Of a stretch of 14,886 nt of DNA, positions 2,138-14,886 are shown piece by piece. The DNA is from Verrucomicrobiales bacterium (GTDB taxonomy: Bacteria; Verrucomicrobiota; Verrucomicrobiia; Verrucomicrobiales; SLCJ01). The notes under the pieces are model-generated. The model had not been told where the DNA came from, did no database searches, and saw only the letters and a program-made list of their open reading frames with translations. Where the stretch lies: assembly GCA_046075565.1 (NCBI GenBank), contig JBJTQJ010000088.1, forward strand, positions 1 to 14,886, in the 5' to 3' direction. Position 1 is the first letter of the stretch. The number at the start of each line of letters is the position of its first letter. The position numbers were made by a program, and so were the translations under genes.

Positions 2138-2869
2138 ATGCTCCTTTACTCCTCCATTAGGCCGTTCTTGCTCCGCATCCTATTTTCCCTAGTCGTGCTT
2201 GGCTCCAATGTCCCTGCCCAGGAAAATGCCGAGGAGAAGGAAGACAAGTCTCCAATCCTCTTGCGGGTTCTTTGCAAACAACCGGTGGCCGGTGCCACGG
2301 ACCTCAAAATCGTGCAAGGCGAGCAGGCAATCCATGCCCTCGAGATCACACCCTCCCTCATGACCGATCCCATCGCGGTCAATCGGGGAGATTTGCTGCT
2401 TGCCCGCACCGAAGGCGGCGGGGAAAAGCCAACCTTCAACCACGTTTTGAAAATCAACATCCCTAACGAAGGAAAGCGATTTGTCCTCGCCATCTTCGCT
2501 TCTCCCGAACCACCGTCGCCCGACAAACCCTACCAATTCCGTTTGGTCCGCACCGATGGTCTGCGTTTTGGGGCATCGGATCTCTATCTTTTCAACCTCA
2601 CCCCGCTTCCCATCGCGGGTGTTCTCGGCCAGGAGAAATTCGCCCTCGCACCCGAAGCATCCAAGGTCGTCACTCCCAAGCCGGAGGATCCGGAAGGGCA
2701 AATGTATCAGAGCCGCTTCTACTGCCAGATCGGCGATCAGGCGAAAGTCTTCAACGACACCCGTTGGCCGGTTGCCGCCAGCGCGCGGGTTTACCTCTTC
2801 TTCATCCCCGATCCCGAGCGGAAATCCCTAGGTTATCTTTCCTTCAGGGAATACGAACCGTTCCCGTGA
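2138..2869 (+). CDS. Hypothetical protein, probably exported
   Basis: 243-aa ORF starting 26 nt after the previous stop on the same strand. Hydrophobic N-terminus (RILFSLVVLGSNVPA) followed by an acidic stretch, consistent with a signal peptide. No recognisable catalytic motif. Confidence 0.75.
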   Translation: MLLYSSIRPFLLRILFSLVVLGSNVPAQENAEEKEDKSPILLRVLCKQPVAGATDLKIVQGEQAIHALEITPSLMTDPIAVNRGDLLLARTEGGGEKPTFNHVLKINIPNEGKRFVLAIFASPEPPSPDKPYQFRLVRTDGLRFGASDLYLFNLTPLPIAGVLGQEKFALAPEASKVVTPKPEDPEGQMYQSRFYCQIGDQAKVFNDTRWPVAASARVYLFFIPDPERKSLGYLSFREYEPFP

Positions 2870-2953: not shown

Positions 2954-4468
2954 ATGTTTTTCGCGCCTTTCCGGTTCTCCCTGCTGTTCGCGGTGCTGGT
3001 GCCCCTCTCCTTGTCGGCAGGACCATCGGATCCCATCCTCAAGCCCGATGTCATCCTCATGATGAGTGATGATCACGGTTGGGAGGAAACGGGTTACAAC
3101 GGCCATCCGCACGTTAAGACTCCGGTGCTTGATCAAATGGCCGCCACCGGGCTGAAGTTCGAGCGCTTTTACGCCGCCCATCCGAGTTGCTCACCGACCC
3201 GCGCGAGTTTTCTCACCGGCCGACACCCGAACCGTATGGGCACCTTCGCTCCGGGTTGGTCGATGCGCCCGGAAGAGACCACCATCGCCCACCTCATGTC
3301 GAAAGCCGGTTATCATTGCGCCCATCTCGGTAAATGGCATGTCGGCGCGGTAAAAGCAGGCTCCCCCGTGAACCCGGGCGCCATGGGATTCCACGAATGG
3401 CTTTCCCATGACAATTTCTTCGAGCTCAATCCCCCGTTCTCGCGCAACGGCGGCCCCCCGGAGGTCCTTAAGGGCGAAAGCTCGGACTTGTTGGTCCAGG
3501 AAGCCATTGCCGCCATGGCAAGGGCGCGCGCGGCAAACAAGCCGGTCTTTCTGGTCATCTGGTTCGGTTCTCCTCACGAGCCCTATCAGGGATTGACACA
3601 GGATCTCGCTCTCTATGACGATGTCACGGCCAAATACTCGAAAATGGTCAGCCTCACTTCGAATGAAACCGGTCTGCAGACGAGACGGCCTCAAGGCGAG
3701 GTTTTGCGCGAACGCTACGCGGAGATCACCGCCATGGATCGCGCCATCGGGAAATTGCGTGAACATCTGGTGGAAACCGGTCGGCGCGAGAACACCCTGC
3801 TCTTCTATTGCGGTGATAATGGCACCTCGCCTGATAGCGCGCTCGGCTTCCCCCATCGCGGCGTCAAAGGCCAGATCTACGAAGGCGGCACGCTTGTTCC
3901 CGGTCTGATAGAATGGCCCGCCCGAATTCCGAAACCCCGCACGACATCATTCCGCGCCTGCACCTCCGATCTGCTGCCGACCCTTGCCACCCTCACCGGC
4001 CAGCCATTGCCGAAGCGTCCTCTCGACGGATTCGATCTCGGTCCGGTGCTCGATGGAAAGATGAACGAGCGCCCGATCCCCATCGCCTTCTGGGACTTCA
4101 ATAGCGGACGCTTTCTCAAGACCAGTCCGAAGCCGTATATTGATCCCGCGTTGCAAGAGGGCACCACGCCCTTGGTGAAGCGGGGCGGGAGCAAATTCAC
4201 GAGGGATTTCTACAATTACCAATACCCGGAGGTCAATGAAGCCGACGTGAAAGGTCCCCGCTCCATCATCGAAGGTGATCACAAGTTGGTTCTGATGGAA
4301 AAGAACGGCGAGACGAGCATCGAGTTATTCGACTTGAAGACCGACCCGGCGGAGAAAACGAATCTCCTCGCGCAAAAACCGGAACTCGCCCGCAAACTCG
4401 AAGCGGATATGCTCGAGTGGCAACGTTCCGTGCTAAAGAGCCTCACGGGAGCGGACTACCAACCTTGA
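2954..4468 (+). CDS. Secreted formylglycine-dependent sulfatase (family S1, arylsulfatase-like)
   Basis: Signal peptide; metal-binding MMSDDHG; signature CSPTRASFLTG (CxPxR); GKWH; GDNG; KGQIYEGG; C-terminal ELFDLKTDPAEKTNL. Confidence 0.95.
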   Translation: MFFAPFRFSLLFAVLVPLSLSAGPSDPILKPDVILMMSDDHGWEETGYNGHPHVKTPVLDQMAATGLKFERFYAAHPSCSPTRASFLTGRHPNRMGTFAPGWSMRPEETTIAHLMSKAGYHCAHLGKWHVGAVKAGSPVNPGAMGFHEWLSHDNFFELNPPFSRNGGPPEVLKGESSDLLVQEAIAAMARARAANKPVFLVIWFGSPHEPYQGLTQDLALYDDVTAKYSKMVSLTSNETGLQTRRPQGEVLRERYAEITAMDRAIGKLREHLVETGRRENTLLFYCGDNGTSPDSALGFPHRGVKGQIYEGGTLVPGLIEWPARIPKPRTTSFRACTSDLLPTLATLTGQPLPKRPLDGFDLGPVLDGKMNERPIPIAFWDFNSGRFLKTSPKPYIDPALQEGTTPLVKRGGSKFTRDFYNYQYPEVNEADVKGPRSIIEGDHKLVLMEKNGETSIELFDLKTDPAEKTNLLAQKPELARKLEADMLEWQRSVLKSLTGADYQP

Positions 4469-4475
4469 AATACCC

Positions 4476-5972
4476 ATGAAAACCGGAACAGTTTTCGCCG
4501 CTCTTTTCCTTGTCTCGCTATCAGTGGCCATCGCGGATCCCAAATCCGCGAAGCCGAACGTGCTCATGATCGTGATCGATGATCAGAACGACTGGATCGG
4601 CCCCACGGGCGGTCATCCTTTGGTAAAGACACCCCATCTCGATGCCCTCGCCGCGCGCGGAACCACCTTTCTCAACGCGCATTGCCAATCGCCGTTGTGC
4701 AATCCGTCGCGAACCAGCGCGATGTTCAGCGTGCGTCCGACCACCACCGGGATCTACGGATTATCCCCCGCCCCGCGCGACCACGCCGATCTGAAGTCCC
4801 GTGTCTCCTTGCCCCAGCACTTCGCTGCACACGGCTACCGCACGTATGCCACCGGGAAGGTCTATCACGCGGGCACGACCGCGGGCGGGAAGGGTCTGCC
4901 CGCCGAATTCGATGTGACCGCGCCCTTCGGTGGTGTCGGTTCGCGCCCGAAGAAAAAGCTCATTCCCGCCACGCCGATGGGAAACCATCCGGCCATGGAC
5001 TGGGGCGTCTGGCCACCCGATAACGACGACACCGAAAAAGGCGATTTCAAAGTGGCGACCTGGATCTCGGATTCCATCCGGCAGGCACCGGCAGATCAAC
5101 CCTTTTTCTTATCGGCGGGATTTTCCCTTCCACACGTCCCTTGTTATGCGACCCAAAAGTGGTTCGACCTCTATCCGGATGACGACAGTGTGTTACCGAA
5201 GACCCTCGCCGGGGACCGCGATGACACTCCCCGCTTTTCCTGGTATCTGCACTGGACACTTCCCGAACCGAGGCTCAAGTGGCTGCAGGAAAGCAAGCAA
5301 TGGCGCAACCTCGTCCGCAGCTATCTTGCCAGCACCAGTTTCATGGATTCCCAAATCGGACGATTGATGGACGCCCTGCGGGAATCCGGTCGTCTTCAAA
5401 ACACCATCGTGGTAGTCTGGAGTGATCACGGTTGGCATCTGGGAGAAAAAGCAATTTCCGGCAAGAACACCTTGTGGGATCGTTCGACCCGCGTGCCCCT
5501 CATCTTCGCAGGTCCGGGTGTAGGAGCAGGGCAACGCTGCACCCAACCTGCGGAATTGATGGACATCTATCCAACCTTGGTCGAATTGGCCGGCTTGGGC
5601 AAACGTGATGACCTCGAAGGTCTGAGCCTTGTCCCGCAACTGCGCGACGCGGCAAGCAAACGCGTGCGTCCCGCCATCACCAGCCACAATCAGGGCAACC
5701 ATGGCATCCGCAGCGAACGTTGGCGCTACATCCGTTATGCCGATGGCAGCGAGGAACTCTACGACATGATCGTGGATCCAAACGAGTGGAACAACCTGGC
5801 AGCAAAACCCGAACATGCACCTATCGTTGCCGAGCACAAAGCGTGGTTGCCCAAAGTGGATCGCCCGCTGGCTCCGAAGAGCGCCTCGCGCATCCTTACC
5901 TATGATGCGGCCACTGATACCGCCGTCTGGGAAGGGAAAACCATCAAACGCGGGGATCCGATTCCGGAATGA
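4476..5972 (+). CDS. Secreted formylglycine-dependent sulfatase (family S1, iduronate-2-sulfatase/choline-sulfatase-like)
   Basis: Signal peptide; KPNVLMIVIDD; signature CNPSRT; GKVYH; SDHGWHLGEK; KNTLWDRSTRVPLIF; EELYDMIVDPNEWNNLA. Starts 7 nt after the first sulfatase. Confidence 0.95.
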   Translation: MKTGTVFAALFLVSLSVAIADPKSAKPNVLMIVIDDQNDWIGPTGGHPLVKTPHLDALAARGTTFLNAHCQSPLCNPSRTSAMFSVRPTTTGIYGLSPAPRDHADLKSRVSLPQHFAAHGYRTYATGKVYHAGTTAGGKGLPAEFDVTAPFGGVGSRPKKKLIPATPMGNHPAMDWGVWPPDNDDTEKGDFKVATWISDSIRQAPADQPFFLSAGFSLPHVPCYATQKWFDLYPDDDSVLPKTLAGDRDDTPRFSWYLHWTLPEPRLKWLQESKQWRNLVRSYLASTSFMDSQIGRLMDALRESGRLQNTIVVVWSDHGWHLGEKAISGKNTLWDRSTRVPLIFAGPGVGAGQRCTQPAELMDIYPTLVELAGLGKRDDLEGLSLVPQLRDAASKRVRPAITSHNQGNHGIRSERWRYIRYADGSEELYDMIVDPNEWNNLAAKPEHAPIVAEHKAWLPKVDRPLAPKSASRILTYDAATDTAVWEGKTIKRGDPIPE

Positions 5973-6062
5973 GACTGCGCCTCTTTTGAGAACAATTCTG
6001 CCTTGCGTATGGAGGCCATCAAAGTGTTCGACCTCATCGATCCGTTTCTCCAGACAGTGCGT

Positions 6063-6094
6063 CTTTCAAGCGCGAGACCATTCACTCTTGAAAG
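6063..6094. terminator. Inverted repeat between convergent genes, possible terminator
   Basis: ctttcaag (6063-6070) and cttgaaag (6087-6094) are perfect reverse complements, with further imperfect inner pairing. No clear U-tract. Confidence 0.3.
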
Positions 6095-6102
6095 GAAGAT
6101 GG

Positions 6103-6263
6103 AACCACAGATTTCACCCTACGCCGCCCTGCGGACTATGAAGGGCAAACAGATGGTCACGGATTTTTAAAGACTTGCAACAAATTCACCGCCGATCTGC
6201 TGGACGAAAAATTCTTCTTCCAGAACATCCTCAGTATCTGTGTTTTCCGTGTAATCTGTGGTT
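6103..6263. repeat. MITE/REP-like element with inverted arms built from ~9-nt AC(A/G)GAT units
   Basis: aaccacagatt (6103-6113) and aatctgtggtt (6253-6263) form a perfect 11-bp terminal inverted repeat. Each arm has three acagat/acggat/acggaa units. The left arm is interrupted by 31 bp (6118-6148). Confidence 0.6.
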
Positions 6264-6282
6264 TTCACTTCTGAATTTAGGA

Positions 6283-6717
6283 TCACTCCCCCGCTTCCTC
6301 GCCACCGAGCGTGACGCGGGCGGTGAGGATTTTTTTGTCTCCGGCGAGCACCTCGCCCTCGACCATGGCGAGCCCTCCCATCCGACCGCTGAGGCGGGCG
6401 TGGATTTCGATGGTCTCTCCGGGCCCCGCGGAACCGTTGATCCGGGCATTTTGCACGGCGGCCAATAGCAGTTTCCTCAGGGGCGGGCGCTCCGGGTCGG
6501 ACTGGACGATGATCCCTCCGAGCTGGGCTACGGCCTCAATCATGACCACGCCGGGCAAAATCGGATTGCCCGGGAAGTGGGCGGGCAGGAAAAACTCGTC
6601 TCCACGCACCAAATAGGTCGCAACCGCGTTCACTCCAGGTTCCAAGCGGGTGATGGTTTCGATAAATCGGAACGCGGAACCGTGGGGCAGGCTGGTGAGC
6701 GGGTCGGTGGGGGTCAT
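6283..6717 (-). CDS. FabZ/FabA-family hotdog 3-hydroxyacyl-ACP dehydratase
   Basis: LPHGSAFRFIETI (cf. LPHRYPFLLVDRV) and HFPGNPILPGVVMIEAVAQ carrying the catalytic His/Glu dyad; 144 aa. Confidence 0.92.
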   Translation of the reverse strand: MTPTDPLTSLPHGSAFRFIETITRLEPGVNAVATYLVRGDEFFLPAHFPGNPILPGVVMIEAVAQLGGIIVQSDPERPPLRKLLLAAVQNARINGSAGPGETIEIHARLSGRMGGLAMVEGEVLAGDKKILTARVTLGGEEAGE

Positions 6718-6819
6718 TCTGGAGATACGCTAACGGAAAGCGAGAGCATTTTCCACCGCCAAGGTGTTTTCCCACCCCCGGCAATCTCGGCGGGGCTTTT
6801 CCACCATTGTCCGACGCGC

Positions 6820-6848
6820 TTGTGTCGGAGTGCATCCATGGTTAGGTT
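6820..6848 (+). promoter_or_regulatory. Putative sigma70-type promoter for the GT2-methyltransferase operon
   Basis: TTGTGT (6820-6825), 17-nt spacer, TAGGTT (6843-6848), then 5 nt to the in-frame GTG at 6854. Confidence 0.45.
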
Positions 6849-6853
6849 CCCCT

Positions 6854-7630
6854 GTGCCCGATTCCGCCAACTGCCAATGTGTCGTTCTGATTCCGACGTA
6901 TAATACGGGGGAAAAAGTGCGCGAGGTGGTCGCGGAGGTCCGAAAAACCGGTTACCCGCTCATTGTCGTTGCCGATGGTTCGACCGACGGCACGACGGAG
7001 ATGTTGCGGAAAATGGCTGCGGAAGATGAAGCCATGACTTTGCTGGCCCACGAACGCAACCAAGGCAAGGGTGCAGCCTTACTCACCGGTGCCCGCGAGG
7101 CCTTGCAGCTCGGTTACACCCACGTGCTTGCCTTTGATGCCGACGGCCAACATCCGGTGTCTGTGGTGGGCGAGTATCTGGCGGCCATGCGCTCGGATCC
7201 GCACGCTTGGGTGGCGGGTTATCCGGTCTTCGATGCGAAGGCCCCGTGGGAGCGCGTCTTCTTCCGCAAGCTGGCTCTCTTCTGGACCCGTGTCGTATCC
7301 AGGCAACGGGAACTGAAAGACGCCATGTTCGGCATGCGTGTGTATCCGGCCCAAGCGCTCGTCGATTGCCTCGAATCCACTTCCCTCGGTCGACGTTACG
7401 ATGTCGAATGTGTGCTCGCCATCCGCCTCTCCCGCGCCGGGCATCCGGTGATTAACGTGGCGACACCGGTTCGTTACTTCCAAGCCGGCGAGGGCGGCGT
7501 CTCCCACTACCACTACCTGCGCGACAACGTGCGGCTGGGACTGGTCTTTCTAGCCCTCATGCCGGGCGCATTGACGCACCGTCGTCCGCCGCACCGCGAG
7601 GAATGGGAAATTTCCTCTCCCATCACATGA
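6854..7630 (+). CDS. Family 2 glycosyltransferase (DPM1-like)
   Basis: VLIPTYN, VVADGSTDGT, NQGKGAAL, DXD motif FDADGQH, SHY..LRDN. The ORF track starts at 6764, but the GT2 domain begins just after the GTG at 6854, which also follows a promoter-like element. Confidence 0.92.
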   Translation: MPDSANCQCVVLIPTYNTGEKVREVVAEVRKTGYPLIVVADGSTDGTTEMLRKMAAEDEAMTLLAHERNQGKGAALLTGAREALQLGYTHVLAFDADGQHPVSVVGEYLAAMRSDPHAWVAGYPVFDAKAPWERVFFRKLALFWTRVVSRQRELKDAMFGMRVYPAQALVDCLESTSLGRRYDVECVLAIRLSRAGHPVINVATPVRYFQAGEGGVSHYHYLRDNVRLGLVFLALMPGALTHRRPPHREEWEISSPIT

Positions 7631-8289
7631 CCCCGACCCGTGAAAAGTTTAAGGACTTGTGCTCCCGTTTCCCGACCACCGGGGAACGCTGTTATGCGCG
7701 CGGAAAGCTGGCCACCGATCCCTTGTATCCCGCGGTGCGCCGGGCCCTCGGGGAAAGAGATGACATCCCACTCTTGGACATCGGCTGCGGCATGGGTGTG
7801 CTTGCGTTTTACCTCCGCCTGACCGGCTGGAAAGGTCCCATCCGCGGACTGGATTACGACGCCCGCAAGATCGAGACAGCCAACCGTCTCGCGCCCGGAT
7901 TTCCCGGTGAGCATCGCTTCGAATGTGCCGATGCGATCCAAGGCCTGCCCGACCATCTCGGGCATGTAACCATCCTCGATATCCTCCAGTATTTCCCGAA
8001 TGAGGGTCGTGCGCGTCTGTTAGAGGAAGCAGCCCGCCGCGTGGCTCCCGGCGCGTTGCTCGTGCTCCGCACCGGCCTGGCCGCGCCGGGTTGGCGCTTC
8101 CGGGTCACGCGGTTCATGGACCATATGGCCAAGGTTGCGAACTGGATGAAGTCCCCTCCCCTCCACTACCCAACTGCGGAGGAAATCGAATCCGTGTTGC
8201 GCGGCGCGGGACTGGAGGGCTCGCTCGTTCCCTTGTGGGGCCGCACCCCTTTTAACAACTGGCTGGGGGTTTTCGCACGTGCGAAGTGA
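7627..8289 (+). CDS. Class I SAM-dependent methyltransferase
   Basis: Motif I LLDIGCGMG, acidic GLDYD, TILDILQY, RRVAPGALLVLR. ATG at 7627 overlaps the GT2 stop as ATGA (translational coupling). Confidence 0.92.
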   Translation: MTPTREKFKDLCSRFPTTGERCYARGKLATDPLYPAVRRALGERDDIPLLDIGCGMGVLAFYLRLTGWKGPIRGLDYDARKIETANRLAPGFPGEHRFECADAIQGLPDHLGHVTILDILQYFPNEGRARLLEEAARRVAPGALLVLRTGLAAPGWRFRVTRFMDHMAKVANWMKSPPLHYPTAEEIESVLRGAGLEGSLVPLWGRTPFNNWLGVFARAK

Positions 8290-8557
8290 GTAGAGAGGAA
8301 TACAGGAATCGCCGCAAAGCGGGCAGTTGACTCCGCAAAGCCGCTCAAGAATTCAGGATTTCTCCCCGAAAACGCGAAGAATACCATTGCGGGGATCCCT
8401 TCCCATCGGCAGAATCTCGTCGAAACGGTGTGAGCATCTCACGGCCCGACTTGCGCGAAACTTGGCTTCTTGGTGCGGGAACTTTGCTGCAGCCGCCACC
8501 ATGCCATCAACGGCAACTGACATTGAACCGCAATGCTTATCATTCCGACATTTCGGA

Positions 8558-9325
8558 TCATTCGGGCAACAATGAAAATTCCCATCCATCCTCCCGGCAG
8601 CGCTTGATGAGAAGCTCGAGGGTCGCCACTGAGTGTGCATGCCCTTGGTGCAACAGAATGATGCTTCCGGGCATGAGCCCGGCGAGGATCGCGCGGACGA
8701 TGGACTCCGGATCGCGGCGGCGGGTGTCGAAGCCGCGGGCATTCCAACCGAGCAGGCCGAGACCTTGCTCGCGAACCAGAGCCGGCAGAAACGGTCCTAA
8801 CAAACCGACCGGTGCGCGAAACCAACGTGGGGATTGACCGCTGGTGGCGGCGATCATTTGATTCCCTTCCCGAATCTCGCGGCGTTGGGCCGACGGTGGC
8901 ATGGCCCAGAAGGTGGTCGCCGGATGGGAGCGCGTATGATTTCCAATCTGATGCCCGGCCTCCGTGATGGCGCGGGCGAGATCTGGACTTGCCGCGGCGC
9001 GATCACCGATGAGGAAAAAACACGCTTTGGCTTGATGACTTTCCAGCACCTCAAGCATTGCCGGTGTGTCGTCCGTCGGGCCATCGTCGATAGTGAGATA
9101 GAGCATCTTTTTTCCCGTGGCCGGAAAGGATCGCCGGGCGCGGCCGAAGAACCATCCGTGGGGAAAGGCGATGCTGCGGATCATGACCACCGCGATGACG
9201 CCGAAGGCTATGGCAAGTCCGGTTGTGCCCCATGGCGCACCCGCGAGCAGTGGCAGCGCGTGCAAAAGCACCAGCCGCGTCCATGGGCGCGGGACCGCTG
9301 GCAAGTTCGCGGACGGAGCATTCAT
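8558..9325 (-). CDS. NodB/CE4 polysaccharide deacetylase with N-terminal membrane anchor
   Basis: CE4 motifs LTIDDGP, NHTRSH, WFRAPVG, IILLH; hydrophobic N-terminal segments. Start placed at ATG 9325 because the longer ORF from 9475 overlaps vapC. Confidence 0.92.
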   Translation of the reverse strand: MNAPSANLPAVPRPWTRLVLLHALPLLAGAPWGTTGLAIAFGVIAVVMIRSIAFPHGWFFGRARRSFPATGKKMLYLTIDDGPTDDTPAMLEVLESHQAKACFFLIGDRAAASPDLARAITEAGHQIGNHTRSHPATTFWAMPPSAQRREIREGNQMIAATSGQSPRWFRAPVGLLGPFLPALVREQGLGLLGWNARGFDTRRRDPESIVRAILAGLMPGSIILLHQGHAHSVATLELLIKRCREDGWEFSLLPE

Positions 9326-9351
9326 GGTTGGAGCGCGAGGAACATGCCCCT

Positions 9352-9732
9352 TCAAGGCTTTTGATAGGGCTCGATCAAATTTTTCACCATGGGAAAATGC
9401 CGGCTGTTCAGCGCGGCCAGTGGCATCGAGTGGAAAACGGCAGTCGCGGCGATGAGGCAATCCGCCAAACCGCACCCGCAGGAACTCCTAAAATCACGGC
9501 GGAACAACCCTCCCAACTCGCCAATCTCTTCCGTGACGGGAAGCACTATCAAAGCCGAAACCGTCCCCGCGAGCAGGGCCTTTTCATGCCCATCGCGGAC
9601 ACCTTGGAAAAGCTCCGCGACGGTAATTGCCGAGACGTTGATCCGGTCCACATTTCCATGCACGAACTCCACCGCCGCGGGATGGCCGCGCAGATAGTCA
9701 ATCATCACATCCGTATCGACCAGCATGATCAA
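9352..9732 (-). CDS. vapC: PIN-domain toxin (VapC family)
   Basis: LVDTDVMIDYL, SAITVAELFQG, LADCLIAATA and LNSRHFPM are PIN-domain acidic-residue motifs. Starts at TTG 9732 (overlapping the antitoxin stop) or ATG 9726. Confidence 0.92.
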   Translation of the reverse strand: MIMLVDTDVMIDYLRGHPAAVEFVHGNVDRINVSAITVAELFQGVRDGHEKALLAGTVSALIVLPVTEEIGELGGLFRRDFRSSCGCGLADCLIAATAVFHSMPLAALNSRHFPMVKNLIEPYQKP

Positions 9733-9959
9733 AAGCGGTCGAATTCCGCGCGCAGGTCGGGAAGGTTCAAGTCCTCACGGTCTTTCCAAACTCCGCAGGC
9801 AGCCTGCACCCGCCCGAGTCGATCCTGTGGCCCGAGTTTCTGCAAATACTGGTCGATGGCCTCTCGAATGATTTCGCTCTGCTTCCTGCCGGTCCGGGCC
9901 GCGACACGAGCCACTCCCTGAGCTTCGGCACGGGTTAGGTAGATCTGGGTTCGTGTCAT
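9729..9959 (-). CDS. vapB: Ribbon-helix-helix (CopG-like) antitoxin, VapB-type
   Basis: 76 aa; MTRTQIYLT beta strand, then helices with QSEIIREAIDQYL; C-terminal ACGVWKDRED; directly upstream of and overlapping the PIN gene. Confidence 0.88.
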   Translation of the reverse strand: MTRTQIYLTRAEAQGVARVAARTGRKQSEIIREAIDQYLQKLGPQDRLGRVQAACGVWKDREDLNLPDLRAEFDRF

Positions 9960-9993
9960 ACATCACGATGTATGATAAACTGGAATCTGTCAA
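9956..9993 (-). promoter_or_regulatory. vapBC promoter with palindromic operator
   Basis: Perfect 9-bp inverted repeat tcatacatc-ac-gatgtatga (9956-9975) covers the start codon. On the minus strand: TTGACA (9993-9988), 17-nt spacer, CATCGT (9970-9965), 5 nt, ATG. Confidence 0.7.
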
Positions 9994-10445
9994 CAGGCGG
10001 ATCGGGAGGTTCCTCTCGCAGCAAGTTCCGCCACGGTCAGCACGACGGCAACGATGGCGATGGCTCGCGGCCAACCGGGTTCGGTCGCCGCAACCATGCA
10101 GGTAGCAACCTGGACAGCGGCGAACCAGACCCTACCATTGATGGTCGGGGCGGTGAGGGCGTGTAAGGCGGCGGCGGCGAAGACTTCCATTTGCACGAGG
10201 GCGGGCACAACTAGCAACATCCAAAATGCTCCGGTTCCCGCGAAGGTGGCGGGAAAGACAACCACCAGCGCGGCGGCGGCCAGCGCGTAACAGAAGGCCA
10301 TGGCAAAAAACGCCTCCCCTTTCCTCGGCACCCGAGCGGGAAACAGAACCCCCTCTGGCGAAGACGCGCCCCTTCCCCCGGGGAACAACCGGGTAAGCGC
10401 GAACTGGCCGCGGCTATAGCGGGAGTTGTCGGCTTCAGGGTTCAT
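9990..10445 (-). CDS. Hypothetical integral membrane protein (about 4 hydrophobic segments)
   Basis: 151 aa, Ala/Val/Leu/Phe-rich segments; ATG overlaps the acyltransferase stop as ATGA (10445-10442). Confidence 0.7.
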   Translation of the reverse strand: MNPEADNSRYSRGQFALTRLFPGGRGASSPEGVLFPARVPRKGEAFFAMAFCYALAAAALVVVFPATFAGTGAFWMLLVVPALVQMEVFAAAALHALTAPTINGRVWFAAVQVATCMVAATEPGWPRAIAIVAVVLTVAELAARGTSRSAC

Positions 10446-11368
10446 GGTTTGGTGGCGGGTTCGACGAGTTGCTCGAAGGCGAGCCAGTGCGAAGGATTTT
10501 CCCGGACTGCGGCCGCGAGCAGCGATGTCCAGCGGGTGGCGAGATGGCGTGTGCCGGCTTCTTTATCGCGGTCCTCCCACGGCGGTTCGAGTGGAAAAAA
10601 GCGCACGCGGTATCGCCGGGGGCCGATGCGGCTCACGAAGACCGGAAGGCATGCAGCCCGGGCGGCGAGGGGCAAAACGAAGGGGCCTTTGGGCAAGCTC
10701 CAAGCGAGCCCATCGTGCTCGAAGCGGAAGGTGGAAAGTCCCTCCAGGGCCCGATCGGCCTGCACGGCGACCCATTCGCCATCTTGGAGGGCACGCAGCA
10801 ACGTGAGTGCGAGGCCGCTCTCGGGGCCGTCATTATAGTGAGTGGCATGGCGATCCCCAGCGAGGGCGGCGAGATTCTCTTCGCGGATCGCAAGCAGGCG
10901 GGCATTGGCTTCCGGTCGGCGCACGGTGTGCAGCCGCTTCGGTAGCCGCCGGGCGAAAAACGCCGCCGCCGCATCATAGCTGCCCATGTGAGCGGTCCAC
11001 AAAACGACGGGCAAGCCGCAGGTTTCGGCGGTGCGCACATTTTCGATGCCCTCCACTTCCCAGGACAGTGGGACGCCGTGTAGGGCGCGGTGGCCGTCGA
11101 TGGTCACGGCCCCGAACTCGGCAATAGCCCGCCAAGCCTGGAAGCCGGGATTTTTCACCCCGAGGGAGCGGAGATTTCCGGCGAGGTTGCCGACCGGCTT
11201 CCGGGCCGCGAGGCCGATGAGTCCGGACCAGAAGGAGTTGTAAATGCCTTCCAGATACCACGGGCAGGCTTCCAGTGTGGCGGTGAGCATCCTCCAGGGC
11301 ACATCGCCGGAAAGCCCCCAGCGCGCCGGAACTTCGGCGGTGGGCGGAGATTCGGCGGACACGGTCAT
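10442..11368 (-). CDS. LpxL/HtrB-family (lipid A lauroyltransferase-like) acyltransferase
   Basis: HX4D catalytic motif WTAHMGSYD, VAVQADR, GPFVLPLAARAACLPVF, C-terminal ENPSHWLAF. Start moved from TTG 11404 to ATG 11368 because the TTG is part of a TTGACA -35 box. Confidence 0.88.
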   Translation of the reverse strand: MTVSAESPPTAEVPARWGLSGDVPWRMLTATLEACPWYLEGIYNSFWSGLIGLAARKPVGNLAGNLRSLGVKNPGFQAWRAIAEFGAVTIDGHRALHGVPLSWEVEGIENVRTAETCGLPVVLWTAHMGSYDAAAAFFARRLPKRLHTVRRPEANARLLAIREENLAALAGDRHATHYNDGPESGLALTLLRALQDGEWVAVQADRALEGLSTFRFEHDGLAWSLPKGPFVLPLAARAACLPVFVSRIGPRRYRVRFFPLEPPWEDRDKEAGTRHLATRWTSLLAAAVRENPSHWLAFEQLVEPATKP

Positions 11369-11375
11369 GGGGGCG

Positions 11376-11404
11376 AGTTTCGCCAGCGGAATGTGGGATG
11401 TCAA
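11376..11404 (-). promoter_or_regulatory. Putative sigma70-type promoter for the acyltransferase operon
   Basis: TTGACA (11404-11399), 17-nt spacer, GAAACT (11381-11376), 7 nt, ATG 11368. Confidence 0.5.
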
Positions 11405-11440
11405 TCCCCGGCTAATCGGTGGCAGAAGTGGAAAATACGA

Positions 11441-11469
11441 TTGGCGACGGGGGCAAATGATGGCAGGAT
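11441..11469 (+). promoter_or_regulatory. Putative promoter for the halogenase-chorismatase-PagL operon
   Basis: TTGGCG (11441-11446), 17-nt spacer ending in TGG (extended -10), CAGGAT (11464-11469), 6 nt, GTG 11476. Confidence 0.45.
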
Positions 11470-11475
11470 CGGAGG

Positions 11476-13038
11476 GTGGAAGTGGAAGAATGCGACGTGC
11501 TCATCATTGGCGGGGCTTTGGCCGGTGCCAGCGCGGGCCTGCTCATCAAACGGCAGGTGCCCGGGGCGCGTGTCCTGATTGTCGAAAAATCCACCCGCAG
11601 TCCCTACAAGGTCGGAGAAAGCACCTCGGAAATCGCCGGATGTTTCCTCTCCCGCATCCTCCGGCTCGGCAGCTACCTTTCCCGTGAACAGATCGGTAAA
11701 AACGGCCTCCGTTTCTGGTTCCATGGCCAGGGCAACGAAAATCCGGCGGCCTGTGCCGAGATGGGGCCGAAACTCCAGACACGCTTACCCGCATGGCAGC
11801 TCGACCGTTCGACCCTCGACCCTCATGTTTTGTCGGAGGCCATCGCGGCCGGTTGTGAATTGTGGCGCCCGGCCAACGTGCGCGAAATCACCACTCCCGG
11901 AGATGGCGCGCCGAACACGATCTTGGTGAACAAGGAAAATGGCGAAGCCACCACCGTGAAAGCGCGTTGGCTAATTGACGCCAGCGGCAAAGCCGCCGTG
12001 CTCGCCCGTCAGCGCGGTTGGTTGGAAGAGCTTGCCGAGCATCCGACCAATTCCATGTGGACGCGATTCCGCGGTGTCGGCGATCTCGACTCGGAAGAAA
12101 TCGTCAATGAACACCCTGAACTTGCCAAACGTGTCTGGGCCCTGCGCGGCACCGCGACCAACCACCTCACCGGTCGCGGATGGTGGGTCTGGATCATCCC
12201 GCTCAAAGGCGGGGAAACCAGCGTCGGTATCACTTGGGATCGCCGGCTCTTTGAACCACCGAAGGAGGGATCGGTCGGTGAACGCTTGATCGCCCATCTG
12301 CGCGGTCATCCGGTGGGAAAATGGATGATGCGGAATGCCACGGTCGTTGAAGGCGACGCCCACCAATACAAACAACTCGCCTACCGCAGCCGGCATGTCG
12401 GCGGTGTCGGTTGGGCCATTGTCGGCGATGCGGCCGGATTCATGGACCCTCTTTACAGCCACGGCATTGATTTCATCGGCAACACTGTCTGGGCGGCCAC
12501 TCGATTGGTCGTTCGTTCACTTGGAGGCGAGGATGTCTCGAAGTGTGCCTTGGCCTACGACACCGGCTACCAGGAAAGCTACGAACGCTGGTTCCGCGCG
12601 CTATATCTCGACAAATACGAATACATTGGGGATGCCGAGTTGATGAATGCCGCCGTGTTGCTCGACGTCGGTTTCTATTTCCTCTGGCCGGTGCGCCTCG
12701 CCTATCGCAACCACGCCGAGGAACTCACCAACCTCCCCTATGCGGGCAAACCGGGAGGAGTGGTAGCCGCCTTCATGGCATTCTATAACCGCCGGCTTGT
12801 TGCCATCGCGCGGAAGCGGGTGGCATTCGGTTGTTATGGAAGGCGCAACACCGGCCACCATTTCATCTTCCGCGAAAGTTTTCATCCCAGCTTCAAAGTG
12901 CTGGGCCTCATCCGCGACGGGCTCTGGGCCTGGACCAAAGCCGAGGTCTCGACTTTGTGTCTTTCCCTGCGCGCGAGCCGCGTTCCCACTCCGACCTCGG
13001 CGACTGCGCCTGTTCCCGGTTCCAGCACCGCTACTTGA
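11476..13038 (+). CDS. Flavin-dependent halogenase-like FAD oxidoreductase
   Basis: Rossmann motif DVLIIGGALAG, KVGES, QIGKNG (candidate catalytic Lys), DASG, WWVWIIP (WxWxIP), GDAAGFMDPLYSHG (FxDPxxSxG). Alternative start GTG 11482 behind GGAGG. Confidence 0.88.
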   Translation: MEVEECDVLIIGGALAGASAGLLIKRQVPGARVLIVEKSTRSPYKVGESTSEIAGCFLSRILRLGSYLSREQIGKNGLRFWFHGQGNENPAACAEMGPKLQTRLPAWQLDRSTLDPHVLSEAIAAGCELWRPANVREITTPGDGAPNTILVNKENGEATTVKARWLIDASGKAAVLARQRGWLEELAEHPTNSMWTRFRGVGDLDSEEIVNEHPELAKRVWALRGTATNHLTGRGWWVWIIPLKGGETSVGITWDRRLFEPPKEGSVGERLIAHLRGHPVGKWMMRNATVVEGDAHQYKQLAYRSRHVGGVGWAIVGDAAGFMDPLYSHGIDFIGNTVWAATRLVVRSLGGEDVSKCALAYDTGYQESYERWFRALYLDKYEYIGDAELMNAAVLLDVGFYFLWPVRLAYRNHAEELTNLPYAGKPGGVVAAFMAFYNRRLVAIARKRVAFGCYGRRNTGHHFIFRESFHPSFKVLGLIRDGLWAWTKAEVSTLCLSLRASRVPTPTSATAPVPGSSTAT

Positions 13039-13056
13039 GAAGCATTCCATTCGACC

Positions 13057-13992
13057 ATGCAGGATTCACAGCCAACAGCACCTCGTCTAACCTTCGTCCC
13101 CGGAGCCAAGAGCCTCCGGGTGGATATCGATACCAATGGCATCCACTTCAGTTGCCCGATGCCCCGCCTTGCCGGACCGGAAAGCCAGTGCCTCGCCACG
13201 GGCGCATCCGTCCGCCAACTCGATGACGGGGCGCTCCTCGAAGGATCAGATGGCGACTTGTCGGGTGTGCTACTCGCCGAGGAAAACATTCCACTCGAGG
13301 AAGCCTCGGAAAAAATCTTCAACAGGCTGTTCTCCTTGCTCGACGGTCGTCACATCCGTCGCATCTGGAGTTTTGTGCCCGCGATCAATCAAAGGGTGGA
13401 CGGCAGGGAAAACTACCTGTCATTTAATGCCGGCCGACACAAGGCGTTCACGCGGCTCTGGGGAGAAATTCTACCCGACGCGCTGCCCGCCGCATCCGCC
13501 CTTGGCATTGATCGTGCACGACTCGGTCTCGCCTTTTCGGCAGGTTCCGCCGATGTTTCTCTTTTCGAGAATCCCCTTCAAGTTCCCGCCTGTCGGTATC
13601 CGGAGCGTTACGGCAAGTTGCCCCCGCTTTTCGCCCGCGGGTCGAGCAGCCATCATGACGGTCAGGAAGTCTGGCACCTCTCCGGGACCGCGAGCATCAA
13701 AGGATCCGACACCATCGGCTTGGACATCAACAAGCAACTTGCCACAACCATCGAGAACAGCCGCATCGTGATCGAGCGAATGGGTGTGCCCGCCGACCTC
13801 CCTGGTTGCTGGAAGGTTTTCCTGCGCCATGCCCACGACCTCGATGCCGCACGCGCCGCCTTGGAGAACGCTTGGCCGGGTGCTGCCCATCAATGGCTCT
13901 ATCTTCGCGCCGACATCTGCCGCTCCAGCCTGCTTGTGGAAGTCGAAGCCGCTTTTGATACCTCCATCCGCGCCGCCCTGGTCCACGCCTGA
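13057..13992 (+). CDS. FkbO/Hyg5/XanB2-family chorismatase (hydroxybenzoate-forming type)
   Basis: RIWSFVPAIN, ENYLSFNAGR, PAASALG, FENPLQVPACRYPERYGKLPPLFAR, LSGTASIKG and ADICRSSLLVEVEA are the conserved blocks of this family. Confidence 0.88.
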   Translation: MQDSQPTAPRLTFVPGAKSLRVDIDTNGIHFSCPMPRLAGPESQCLATGASVRQLDDGALLEGSDGDLSGVLLAEENIPLEEASEKIFNRLFSLLDGRHIRRIWSFVPAINQRVDGRENYLSFNAGRHKAFTRLWGEILPDALPAASALGIDRARLGLAFSAGSADVSLFENPLQVPACRYPERYGKLPPLFARGSSSHHDGQEVWHLSGTASIKGSDTIGLDINKQLATTIENSRIVIERMGVPADLPGCWKVFLRHAHDLDAARAALENAWPGAAHQWLYLRADICRSSLLVEVEAAFDTSIRAALVHA

Positions 13993-13998
13993 ATTCGA

Positions 13999-14586
13999 AT
14001 GAAAACGGCAATCTTCCTAACCGCAACCTGGTTTGCCCTCGCCTGTTTTCCAGCCCATGCGGTCGAACCAGCGGCTGACGCGGCCGACAAATGGTCGGTC
14101 GATTTTGAAACCGGAGCCATGTGGCGGGTTTCCAACAACACGTCGATCGATTACCTCGTTCTCCCTCAGATCATCAGTCTCCGCACTCCGGAACATATCC
14201 GCTTTGATCTTTTCGGCCGCGATCTGACCGTGCGCGCCCGCGCCAGTCTGCTCATCGAACCAATCGCGACCGGCCCCGAATCCCTCTATTTGGGTTTCTC
14301 CGCGAGTCCGTCCATCGAATGGTGGCTCGTGCCCGACACCGCCTGCTGGTATACCAGTGTCGGTGGAGGCTTCGGATGGATCGACAGCACGGATGTCCCC
14401 GGCGGACAGGGTCAGGATTTTACCTACAACTGGTTCGCCACTACCGGCCTGCGCTGGTATTTGCGCCCGGATTTTGCCGTCAATGCCGGGATATTTTTCC
14501 AGCACCTGTCCAACCGTGGAGCCACGGATCCGAATCCCGGGTTGGACTCCCTCGGCCCGATGATCGGTTGCACGTGGTCGTTCTGA
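13999..14586 (+). CDS. PagL-like outer-membrane beta-barrel acyloxyacyl hydrolase (lipid A 3-O-deacylase family)
   Basis: Signal peptide ending AHA; alternating beta-strand pattern; FQHLSN...NPGLDS (His-x-Ser plus acidic residue); terminal Phe typical of outer-membrane barrels. Confidence 0.82.
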   Translation: MKTAIFLTATWFALACFPAHAVEPAADAADKWSVDFETGAMWRVSNNTSIDYLVLPQIISLRTPEHIRFDLFGRDLTVRARASLLIEPIATGPESLYLGFSASPSIEWWLVPDTACWYTSVGGGFGWIDSTDVPGGQGQDFTYNWFATTGLRWYLRPDFAVNAGIFFQHLSNRGATDPNPGLDSLGPMIGCTWSF

Positions 14587-14673
14587 GTCGCTGGTTGAGT
14601 GGGGCGACACCACCAGATCTTCAAAGAGATCTGCCGCACCCCAACAGGGCACGCGGTTCGGAGCCGCGACAAC

Positions 14674-14706
14674 AAAAAAAGGAGTCCGGGCGTCCCGCCC
14701 TGAACT
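14674..14706 (-). terminator. Intrinsic terminator for a convergent (minus-strand) transcript
   Basis: Minus strand reads agttcagggcg-gga-cgcccggact-cc-TTTTTTT: a GC-rich stem followed by seven T. Confidence 0.5.
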
Positions 14707-14793
14707 TGTCCCAACCAGTGGCAGAATGCCTAATACTGTGAGTTTAGAACCAATAATCTTGGTCTTCTGGAATCTCATTCTCCAAATTGTAGG

Positions 14794-14886
14794 GCAAGAC
14801 CGGGACGGTCTTGCTACGATTGACATGGAACCTCAAGGGGATCTTGCCTCTGAGGGTCCATCGGAGTAGTAGCAAGACCGTCCCGG
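14794..14886. repeat. Inverted pair of GTAG-type REP-like palindromes (second copy truncated by the window end)
   Basis: gcaagaccg-gga-cggtcttgc-tac (14794-14817) is a perfect 9-bp hairpin ending in CTAC. gtagcaagaccgtcccgg (14869-14886) is the exact reverse complement of 14800-14817. Confidence 0.75.

Follow-up and report, generated by a model that had tools for sequence, protein, structure and literature searches.

Positions 6283–14586 of a 14,886-bp stretch of DNA from a Verrucomicrobiales bacterium (hereafter, the window) very probably encode the part of a xanthomonadin-type aryl-polyene pathway that supplies the starter, tailors the product and anchors it in the envelope. The window is the entire contig C88 of its own genome (G000), which comprises 3.9 Mb in 129 contigs. 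Open reading frames (ORFs) together with Pfam and NCBIfam matches place the genes in four transcription units, namely a dehydratase gene (minus strand), a glycosyltransferase–methyltransferase pair (plus), an acyltransferase–membrane protein–deacetylase unit (minus) and a halogenase–chorismatase–PagL-like barrel unit (plus). An initial annotation of this DNA had listed eight enzyme genes and a membrane-protein gene in four units, and the same sources recovered all nine at or near where it had placed them; every gene of that inventory is present, and what it had missed is the vapBC pair at 9352–9962. The features of the cluster are as follows.

6283–6717, minus strand: FabA/FabZ-like 3-hydroxyacyl-acyl carrier protein (ACP) dehydratase (DH), 144 aa (PF07977, 8.4e-18)
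6764–7630, plus strand: GT2 glycosyltransferase, similar to dolichol-phosphate mannose (DPM) synthase, 288 aa (PF00535, 3.3e-20)
7603–8289, plus strand: class I S-adenosylmethionine-dependent methyltransferase, 228 aa (Methyltransf_23/25/11, 7e-10 to 8e-8)
8558–9325 (ORF open to 9475), minus strand: CE4 (NodB-type) deacetylase, 255 aa (PF01522, 6.7e-31; 4.4e-31 for the 255-aa form)
9352–9732, minus strand: PIN-domain (VapC-type) toxin gene (PF01850, 4.4e-11)
9729–9962, minus strand: ribbon-helix-helix (VapB/CopG-type) antitoxin gene (PF01402, 4.9e-7)
9990–10445, minus strand: hydrophobic protein, 151 aa, about three predicted membrane spans, no assigned family
10442–11404, minus strand: LpxL/HtrB-type acyltransferase (lipid A late acyltransferase superfamily), 320 aa (PF03279, 2.4e-7)
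11476–13038, plus strand: flavin-dependent halogenase Hal1, 520 aa (PF04820, 1.6e-11)
13057–13992, plus strand: chorismatase of the FkbO/Hyg5/XanB2 family, 311 aa (PF21168, 1.6e-16)
13999–14586, plus strand: PagL-family eight-stranded outer-membrane beta-barrel with a signal peptide, 195 aa (PF09411, 4.1e-12)

Because the window is the whole contig, the cluster is cut off 300 bp past the barrel gene. The window contains no ketosynthase (KS), ACP or ligase gene and hence no polyketide core; since only starter, tailoring and anchoring genes are present, the window alone cannot make a polyene.

Polyketide core genes on other contigs

The missing functions were found elsewhere in the same genome. 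Contig C118 carries a KS with both KS domains (1e-31 and 1e-34; 4275–5597), a 354-aa protein resembling a chain length factor (CLF) that has weak N-terminal KS similarity only (FabF model, 5e-8; 3394–4458), and an AMP-ligase (5586–6917). Contig C117 encodes a FabG-like ketoreductase (KR) matching TIGR01830 (1.2e-68) and FlxB (4.5e-59), both under the cut-offs, an ACP (57045–57392), an MprF-flippase-like LPG_synthase_TM protein and a second halogenase. Finally, an MMPL protein on C82 (70799–73225) shows 33–40% identity over its full length to exporters that adjoin the chorismatase or the acyltransferase in relatives. The idea that an MMPL/LolA export pair is missing was considered and proved wrong for MMPL: three MMPL proteins from loci L047, L070 and L087 gave no tblastn match in G000, and it was proteins of about 820 aa in relatives that led to the C82 orthologue.

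The pathway pieces of G000 thus lie on C88, C117, C118 and C82, and those on C117, C118 and C82 stand in mid-contig, flanked by unrelated genes. Housekeeping FabF and FabZ are genes separate from the pathway KS and dehydratase. The best FabZ score of the window dehydratase among NCBIfam models is 5.5e-21, under the model cut-offs; the protein is 58% identical to the syntenic gene of a relative (G013, described below), and its sole paralogue in G000, on C82, shows 31% identity. The window dehydratase is therefore the pathway's own, apart from the housekeeping FabZ. Searches by tblastn with the proteins of G000 itself gave one pathway ACP and one pathway DH, although distant second copies may escape this approach.

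Synteny and co-inheritance of the pathway genes

The link between the window and the core is most direct in G013, a complete genome from another family of the same order. All eight window enzymes have syntenic counterparts there (44–68% identity), and the block continues with genes for an AMP-ligase, KS, CLF-like protein, DUF1361 protein, second halogenase, MprF-flippase-like protein, ACP, FabG-like reductase and PlsC-type acyltransferase. In this genome, the window genes and the core, the exporter excepted, thus lie together in a single uninterrupted stretch of about 17 kb. No enoyl reductase is found among the genes of the block, and ketoreduction and dehydration without enoyl reduction would yield a conjugated polyene. 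The DUF1361 membrane protein (L012, 15572–16327), whose gene separates those of the CLF-like protein and the second halogenase, has no homologue in G000 by tblastn. A 779-aa "AMP-ligase" ORF in G013 was rejected as an artefact, its N-terminal half being antisense to the KS gene.

A locus search with the chorismatase alone returned 168 pattern matches but no relative, and an alignment query was used to fetch 80 loci around chorismatase relatives; many of these are small or truncated by the end of their contig, which makes the counts given for them lower bounds. The nearest loci carry the labels Verrucomicrobiales or Akkermansiaceae, in agreement with the earlier view of the source as a probable verrucomicrobium. 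All eight window enzymes together with the KS, CLF-like protein and AMP-ligase occur in 4 of the 80 loci (L019, L022, L024 and L029), and six of the eight in L021 and L032. The ligase and ACP genes are contiguous with window genes in G013, L019, L024 and L029. Hal1-type halogenases were found in 14/80 loci and the barrel in 10/80, and the chorismatase adjoins both the halogenase and the barrel in the window and in nine loci (L019, L020, L022–L025, L027, L029 and L030). In Opitutales-type and Pseudomonadales loci the arrangement is the classical one, MMPL and LolA_3 genes included.

Presence and absence of the genes were further followed across 41 related genomes, G000 included; as the genomes are kin and not independent, these counts are descriptive. 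The CLF-like gene and the LpxL-type acyltransferase occupy the identical 25 genomes, and no acyltransferase was detected with this query (E <1e-20) in the 16 genomes without a CLF-like gene, including all eight of genus g4. The barrel (23 genomes), Hal1 (18) and the chorismatase (18, E <1e-39) all fall within these 25, with none among the other 16. Six chorismatase matches outside the 25 have E-values from 3e-14 to 2e-5, and five of them cover the C-terminal YjgF-like part only. In G007, the chorismatase, barrel, CLF-like and acyltransferase genes reside on four contigs. Given the synteny and the matching presence and absence, the grouping of genes in the window is beyond chance, and the co-conservation in relatives that the initial annotation had left to be checked is borne out both by the eight syntenic enzymes of G013 and by the patterns across the 41 genomes.

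Seven genomes (G014, G018, G022, G034, G030, G031 and G038) possess the CLF-like gene, acyltransferase and barrel, as well as Hal1 in all but G038. They have no close chorismatase by this query, so their starter unit must come from another source.

Starter and tailoring enzymes

The chorismatase matches TIGR04444 at 8.8e-35, under the model cut-off; a scan of 14 control genomes with this model gave a single match, in Bacteroides thetaiotaomicron, also under the cut-off. Among solved structures, the closest are Hyg5 (5ag3, 3.2e-21) and FkbO (4bps, 7.4e-18), at 1.9e-51 and 1.1e-45, respectively, when a profile is used. Residues E295, C288 and G210 align with E334, C327 and G240 of Hyg5 and are invariant in seven sequences, whereas FkbO has Ala at both positions where the chorismatase and Hyg5 have Gly (240) and Cys (327). 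According to PMC7170507, E334 of Hyg5 is the catalytic Glu, and the Gly and Cys are signature residues of the Hyg5 type; for a third such residue named there, Gly-164 of Nat-hyg5, no position was found in the chorismatase alignments. The Hyg5-type residues argue for an aromatising, hydroxybenzoate-forming enzyme, a prediction to be read with the statement in PMC3949708 that the product of a chorismatase cannot be reliably predicted from a sequence alignment. Chorismatase relatives at 30–38% identity are present in many cyanobacterial and Bombella genomes (L048–L063 and L081–L098). Of the other pathway genes, the cyanobacterial loci contain within 10 kb just one weak AMP-ligase match and one weak KR match, while most Bombella loci have a KS in this range and some a distant halogenase.

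The best NCBIfam match of Hal1 is CmlS (2.7e-24), and its solved relatives are all flavin-dependent halogenases: tetracycline 7-halogenase (1.3e-21), CmlS, PltA and PltM. Two flavin halogenase motifs are well conserved: lysine K45 of KVGES is present in 13 of 14 aligned sequences, and WxWxIP (237–242) in 15 of 15. The second halogenase of G000 (C117, 58301–59629) belongs to the shorter of two kinds (about 440 aa versus about 520–550 aa) and has WSWRIP, while a simple pattern search found no K-x-G-E motif in it. The same pairing of two halogenases is seen in the Pseudomonadales locus L047 (10838–12235 and 17553–19205). The methyltransferase shows a weak UbiG match (1.1e-5) and 55% identity to its G013 counterpart.

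Glycosyltransferase, deacetylase and acyltransferase

For the GT2 enzyme, the best NCBIfam match is the polyprenyl-phospho-GalNAc synthase PpgS (4.9e-19, under the cut-off) and, among solved structures, the closest is that of dolichol-monophosphate mannose synthase (5mlz, 1.1e-8); a DAD motif is present, the G013 gene is 51% identical, and the true start may be further downstream. The CE4 deacetylase carries an N-terminal hydrophobic stretch and is 50% identical to a 263-aa G013 gene product; the solved structures related to it are those of deacetylases of chitin and of peptidoglycan GlcNAc (8e-28 and weaker). In one Verrucomicrobiota locus (L070, 8121–9683, plus strand), the CE4 deacetylase of the cluster follows an N-terminal PAP2 lipid-phosphatase domain within a single protein of 520 aa, a fusion that hints at a lipid-phosphate-linked sugar as the CE4 substrate. 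The acyltransferase scores 30.7 bits against PF03279 (cut-off 22.3), and among NCBIfam models it comes closest to phosphatidylinositol-mannoside acyltransferase (4.6e-9, under the cut-off). Its HX4D motif reads HMGSYD at 139–144, with H139 and D144 invariant in nine aligned sequences; against solved structures, no meaningful match was obtained (best E 0.23).

The acyltransferase–deacetylase unit contains two further elements. The gene of the 151-aa hydrophobic protein overlaps the acyltransferase stop by 4 nt, and the protein has no Pfam or NCBIfam match. Of the seven other syntenic loci in which the acyltransferase and CE4 were both found, six have a same-strand open frame of 162–204 residues between the two, and in L019 no frame of at least 70 residues is listed there. 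These positional counterparts showed no significant similarity to the 151-aa protein (best E 0.19), so the correspondence seen is one of position. The vapBC-type pair, whose two genes overlap by 4 nt, sits between the hydrophobic-protein gene and CE4. G013 lacks such a pair at the matching place, and its membrane-protein and CE4 genes are 22 bp apart; the pair is an insertion in the operon, outside the pathway. We took the CE4 start to be 9325 and not 9475, since the longer form of the ORF overlaps the PIN gene, and 9325 is most likely the true start.

The PagL-family barrel

The barrel exceeds the PF09411 cut-off of 23 with 46.8 bits, and its AlphaFold2 model (mean predicted local distance difference test score 89.8) is eight-stranded. 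Superposition on PagL (2erv) gave Z 16.9 and a root-mean-square deviation of 2.3 Å for 141 of 150 residues, a structural score that is tied with those of OmpA-, NspA- and OprF-type barrels, and the identity to 2erv is just about 15–17%. A profile built from 20 barrel relatives found PagL as the sole solved protein (E 0.021). Residues H169 and S171 align with PagL H126 and S128, the motif being His-x-Ser-Asn against H126-Y-S128-N, and H169, S171 and N172 are invariant in the 20 sequences. His126, Ser128 and Glu140 form the catalytic triad of PagL. At E <1e-5, the barrel has relatives in at least 996 clusters; their source names are "acyloxyacyl hydrolase" or "lipid A 3-O-deacylase", and they include proteins of Verrucomicrobiales such as Prosthecobacter, Roseimicrobium and Phragmitibacter.

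In a profile search of the 80 chorismatase loci, the barrel was confined to 10 of Verrucomicrobiales type; it directly follows the chorismatase in the nine loci that could be read through, and L040 is cut. Elsewhere its neighbors change from genome to genome: KS-CLF-KR-ACP-flavoprotein in G012, two halogenases in G003, KR-ACP-flavoprotein in G040, ACP-flavoprotein in G032 and FabZ in G005, while in nine other genomes no such neighbor lies within 8 kb. The genomic context of the barrel thus points to aryl-polyene genes and not to lipid A genes.

Other features of the window

Two adjacent sulfatases lie upstream of the cluster. In G000, this pair occupies the place of the polyketide synthase (PKS) core genes of G013 and marks the break point of the cluster. 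The remaining features are listed below.

2954–4468 and 4476–5972, plus strand: two S1-family sulfatases, 504 and 498 aa
3–2111 (open at the contig start) and 2138–2869, plus strand: two ORFs of no assigned family, 702 and 243 aa

The latter two ORFs have no Pfam match even at E up to 1, no NCBIfam match and no tblastn match within the G013 cluster region. A 269-aa ORF at 14017–14826 on the minus strand, antisense to the barrel gene and of no assigned family, was treated as spurious. No Rfam match was found in the window, and neither promoter-like sites (1 versus 2.2 ± 1.5 in shuffled sequences) nor terminator-like sites (13 versus 9.3 ± 3.5) exceed chance.

Proposed pathway and alternative explanations

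Families, catalytic motifs, synteny and co-inheritance were observed, and on them we base the following scheme, in which the substrates and the order of steps, as well as the identities of halogen, sugar and final lipid, are as we infer them. The chorismatase would convert chorismate to hydroxybenzoate, presumably 3-hydroxybenzoate (3-HBA) and possibly 4-hydroxybenzoate too, which the aryl-acid AMP-ligase of C118 would load onto the dedicated ACP of C117. Repeated condensation, reduction and dehydration by the KS and CLF-like protein (C118), the KR (C117) and the FabZ-like DH of the window would then produce a conjugated polyene, whose ring and/or chain may be decorated by the methyltransferase, Hal1 and the C117 halogenase. 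By analogy with known systems, the GT2 enzyme, CE4 deacetylase and LpxL-type acyltransferase could assemble a lipid-linked hexosamine and transfer the aryl polyene from the ACP onto it. This role is suggested by Xenorhabdus, where an aryl polyene is ester-linked to the GalNAc of a glycerol-phosphate-GalNAc lipid (bioRxiv 10.1101/2020.12.19.423268). The MprF-like flippase protein (C117) and the MMPL exporter (C82) would deliver the pigment lipid to the outer membrane, where the PagL-family barrel, with its His-Ser pair kept, may remove or move an ester-bound acyl chain.

Several observations weigh against this assignment. The pigment is predicted here from genes, and the connection of the window with the core is drawn from gene order in relatives and from joint occurrence in kin, which are not independent samples. 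The chorismatase, KS, KR and MMPL proteins score under the curated cut-offs of their nearest NCBIfam models. The MMPL family occurs in 29 of the 41 genomes, four of them without the core, and its assignment in G000 follows from adjacency in relatives, while a LolA-like carrier was not found in G000 with three LolA_3 tblastn queries (from L047, L070 and L087), no family-level search having been made. Seven of the 25 core genomes have no close chorismatase and seven no Hal1, which marks both as optional modules, and the chorismatase matches of four relatives (G003, G012, G032 and G040) contain an internal stop. In the barrel, the residue aligned with PagL E140 is Asp in 15 of 20 sequences and Asn in 5. 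Finally, the glycolipid step is proposed by analogy, and the Azoarcus product, according to PMC3949708, is a dialkylresorcinol ester and not a glycolipid.

This last point leads to the foremost of the alternatives, in which the same pathway has another end product: the polyene would be esterified to a (di)alkylresorcinol, like flexirubin and arcuflavin, or be released as a simple ester, with no hexosamine anchor, and the GT2 enzyme, CE4 deacetylase and acyltransferase would serve only transport or another envelope lipid. The Azoarcus arc loci, as presented in PMC3949708, share a glycosyltransferase, acyltransferase, methyltransferase and polysaccharide (PS)-deacetylase with the genes considered here and nevertheless direct the synthesis of a xanthomonadin–dialkylresorcinol ester, and a Verrucomicrobiota genome description mentions a type III PKS cluster beside an aryl-polyene cluster (PMC9865893). 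However, the full product of Xenorhabdus is a glycolipid that has the polyene on a sugar (bioRxiv 10.1101/2020.12.19.423268), and in the present genomes the GT2 and acyltransferase genes are co-inherited with the PKS core; we regard this variant as rather improbable. 

Two further explanations would dissociate the window from a functioning pigment pathway altogether. The acyltransferase, barrel, CE4 and GT2 genes might form an island for remodelling of lipid A or lipopolysaccharide beside an unrelated chorismatase–halogenase pair that makes a small halogenated benzoate, e.g., a diffusible signal like the diffusible factor (DF) of Xanthomonas. The Pfam names of PF03279 and PF09411 denote lipid A families, relatives of the barrel are named lipid A 3-O-deacylase, and 3-HBA is a diffusible factor in Xanthomonas (PMC3949708). 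This explanation becomes very unlikely in view of the phyletic pattern of the acyltransferase, which is that of the CLF-like PKS gene (25/41), of the restriction of the barrel to PKS-core genomes and its adjacency to pathway genes in G012 and G003, and of the presence of all the genes in one block in G013. It is just as hard to credit that the genes of G000 are decaying remnants of a broken-up cluster that yield no product. Their distribution over at least four loci (C88, C117, C118 and C82) with unrelated flanks, the vapBC insertion in one unit and the stops in some relatives' chorismatase matches would fit such decay; however, no window ORF is disrupted or shortened relative to G013, catalytic motifs are kept, scattering with retention in several relatives (e.g., G007) argues for selection, and the Azoarcus pathway works from two unlinked loci (PMC3949708).

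Within the xanthomonadin-type assignment that we favor, a more specific reading can be put forward tentatively, and we consider it possible but doubtful: in Verrucomicrobiales, the barrel would be a PagL-family serine esterase of the outer membrane that the aryl-polyene pathway has recruited as a dedicated component, and the pathway would be functional though dispersed. Acting on the pigment lipid itself, the barrel could remove one of its ester-linked acyl chains or hand the aryl-polyene acyl group on to the final acceptor. The GT2–CE4–LpxL trio might, in steps that parallel ArnC/ArnD or LpxC/LpxD, produce a hexosamine lipid with an N- or O-linked aryl-polyenoyl group. In support of this reading, the barrel is present in 23 of the 25 PKS-core genomes versus none of the 16 others, it has five different pathway neighbors across genomes, its His-x-Ser is kept, and of the 80 chorismatase loci only the 10 of Verrucomicrobiales type contain it.

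Comparison with known aryl-polyene systems

By gene list, the closest known system is the arcuflavin (arc) pathway of Azoarcus sp. BH72, in which two unlinked loci are both needed for the pigment. The gene set given for arc in PMC3949708 is nearly identical to the one found here: a halogenase, a XanB2-type chorismatase and an outer membrane protein, which are consecutive in Azoarcus; a methyltransferase, a PS-deacetylase and a hypothetical protein, likewise consecutive there; and an acyltransferase, glycosyltransferase, dehydratase, AMP-ligase, ACP, KS with an N-terminal-KS-domain protein, reductase and exporter. The likeness is one of gene lists. The Azoarcus outer membrane protein is annotated as MltA-interacting (MipA-like), whereas the one described here is of the PagL family; two halogenases, at least four loci and a LolA-like gene that was not found with three tblastn queries further set the present system apart from arc.

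Similar to Azoarcus, the xan/pig cluster of Xanthomonas and the yellow-pigment cluster of Lysobacter enzymogenes share many components with the genes of G000. They are type II PKS systems with a KS and an unusual CLF-like partner, ACP, KR, FabA/FabZ-like DH, DPM-synthase-like glycosyltransferase, outer membrane protein, exporters and a XanB2-type enzyme. PMC3691225 describes, for Lysobacter, a KS/hypothetical-protein pair with a DPM-synthase homologue conserved beside it, an outer membrane protein and exporters, and a halogenase in Xanthomonas clusters, whose pigments have 0–2 Br and methyl groups. Lysobacter has two DH genes (PMC3691225) compared with the one pathway-type DH found here, and phylum, gene order and linkage differ.

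The ape systems of E. coli CFT073 and Xenorhabdus doucetiae show a shared logic, namely an ACP-bound aryl polyene, a methyltransferase, glycosyl and acyl transfer onto a hexosamine lipid, an RND/MMPL exporter and localisation in the outer membrane. Their core comprises two KS, a CLF, two ACPs, two DHs, a KR and ApeM, plus LolA/LolB-like proteins, and the ape cluster as described has no chorismatase, halogenase, CE4 enzyme or PagL-family barrel (bioRxiv 10.1101/2020.12.19.423268 throughout). With one ACP and one DH found by tblastn, a search that may miss distant second copies, the genes of G000 appear to fall outside the ape core definition. Flexirubin-type clusters have dialkylresorcinol genes (DarA/DarB) and a tyrosine-derived starter; the starter enzyme here is a chorismatase. 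The barrel shares the eight-stranded fold and His-x-Ser-Asn with PagL, the lipid A 3-O-deacylase of Pseudomonas aeruginosa, but unlike PagL it is co-inherited with, and often adjoins, aryl-polyene genes and has Asp or Asn at the third triad position.

Aryl-polyene clusters have been recorded in this phylum before, by antiSMASH in a yellow Verrucomicrobiota isolate (PMC9865893) and as a common feature of Kiritimatiellia (bioRxiv 10.64898/2026.10.06.756941). A literature search conducted mostly at the title and abstract level, supplements excluded, found no chemical characterisation of a xanthomonadin or aryl-polyene pigment from Verrucomicrobiota. The initial annotation had proposed a halogenated, methylated aryl-acyl compound of the envelope resembling xanthomonadin or aryl polyenes. 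The core genes in the same genome, their contiguity with window genes in relatives and the Azoarcus gene list support that proposal. The supposed novelty of the locus is reduced, since at the level of cluster type it largely corresponds to an already characterised pathway. The cluster is an ordinary example, in a little-studied phylum, of a known and very widespread kind; what sets it somewhat apart is the PagL-family barrel, which is inherited along with the pathway and has preserved its His-Ser pair.

Implications

The points of some interest are the combination of a chorismatase with two halogenases in Verrucomicrobiales, the co-inherited dispersal over at least four loci and the vapBC pair inside an operon. 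The case also illustrates a limit of cluster-based genome mining: with the pathway spread across four or more loci and every core PKS gene outside the window, rule-based detection would probably pick up the KS locus only, and joining the dispersed pieces required an analysis of co-inheritance.

The barrel and the GT2, CE4 and acyltransferase enzymes provide leads on how xanthomonadin-type polyenes are anchored, a question settled for the E. coli/Xenorhabdus type (bioRxiv 10.1101/2020.12.19.423268). If the tentative reading of the barrel as a recruited esterase is true, it would add a new substrate class to a family known only from lipid A.

The genes described here place chorismatase-primed, halogenase-bearing aryl-polyene synthesis genes in the Verrucomicrobiales, an order common in marine and freshwater polysaccharide degradation. 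They are a candidate basis for the yellow colour of Verrucomicrobiales isolates and for halogenated outer-membrane lipids that may act as antioxidants or in photoprotection.

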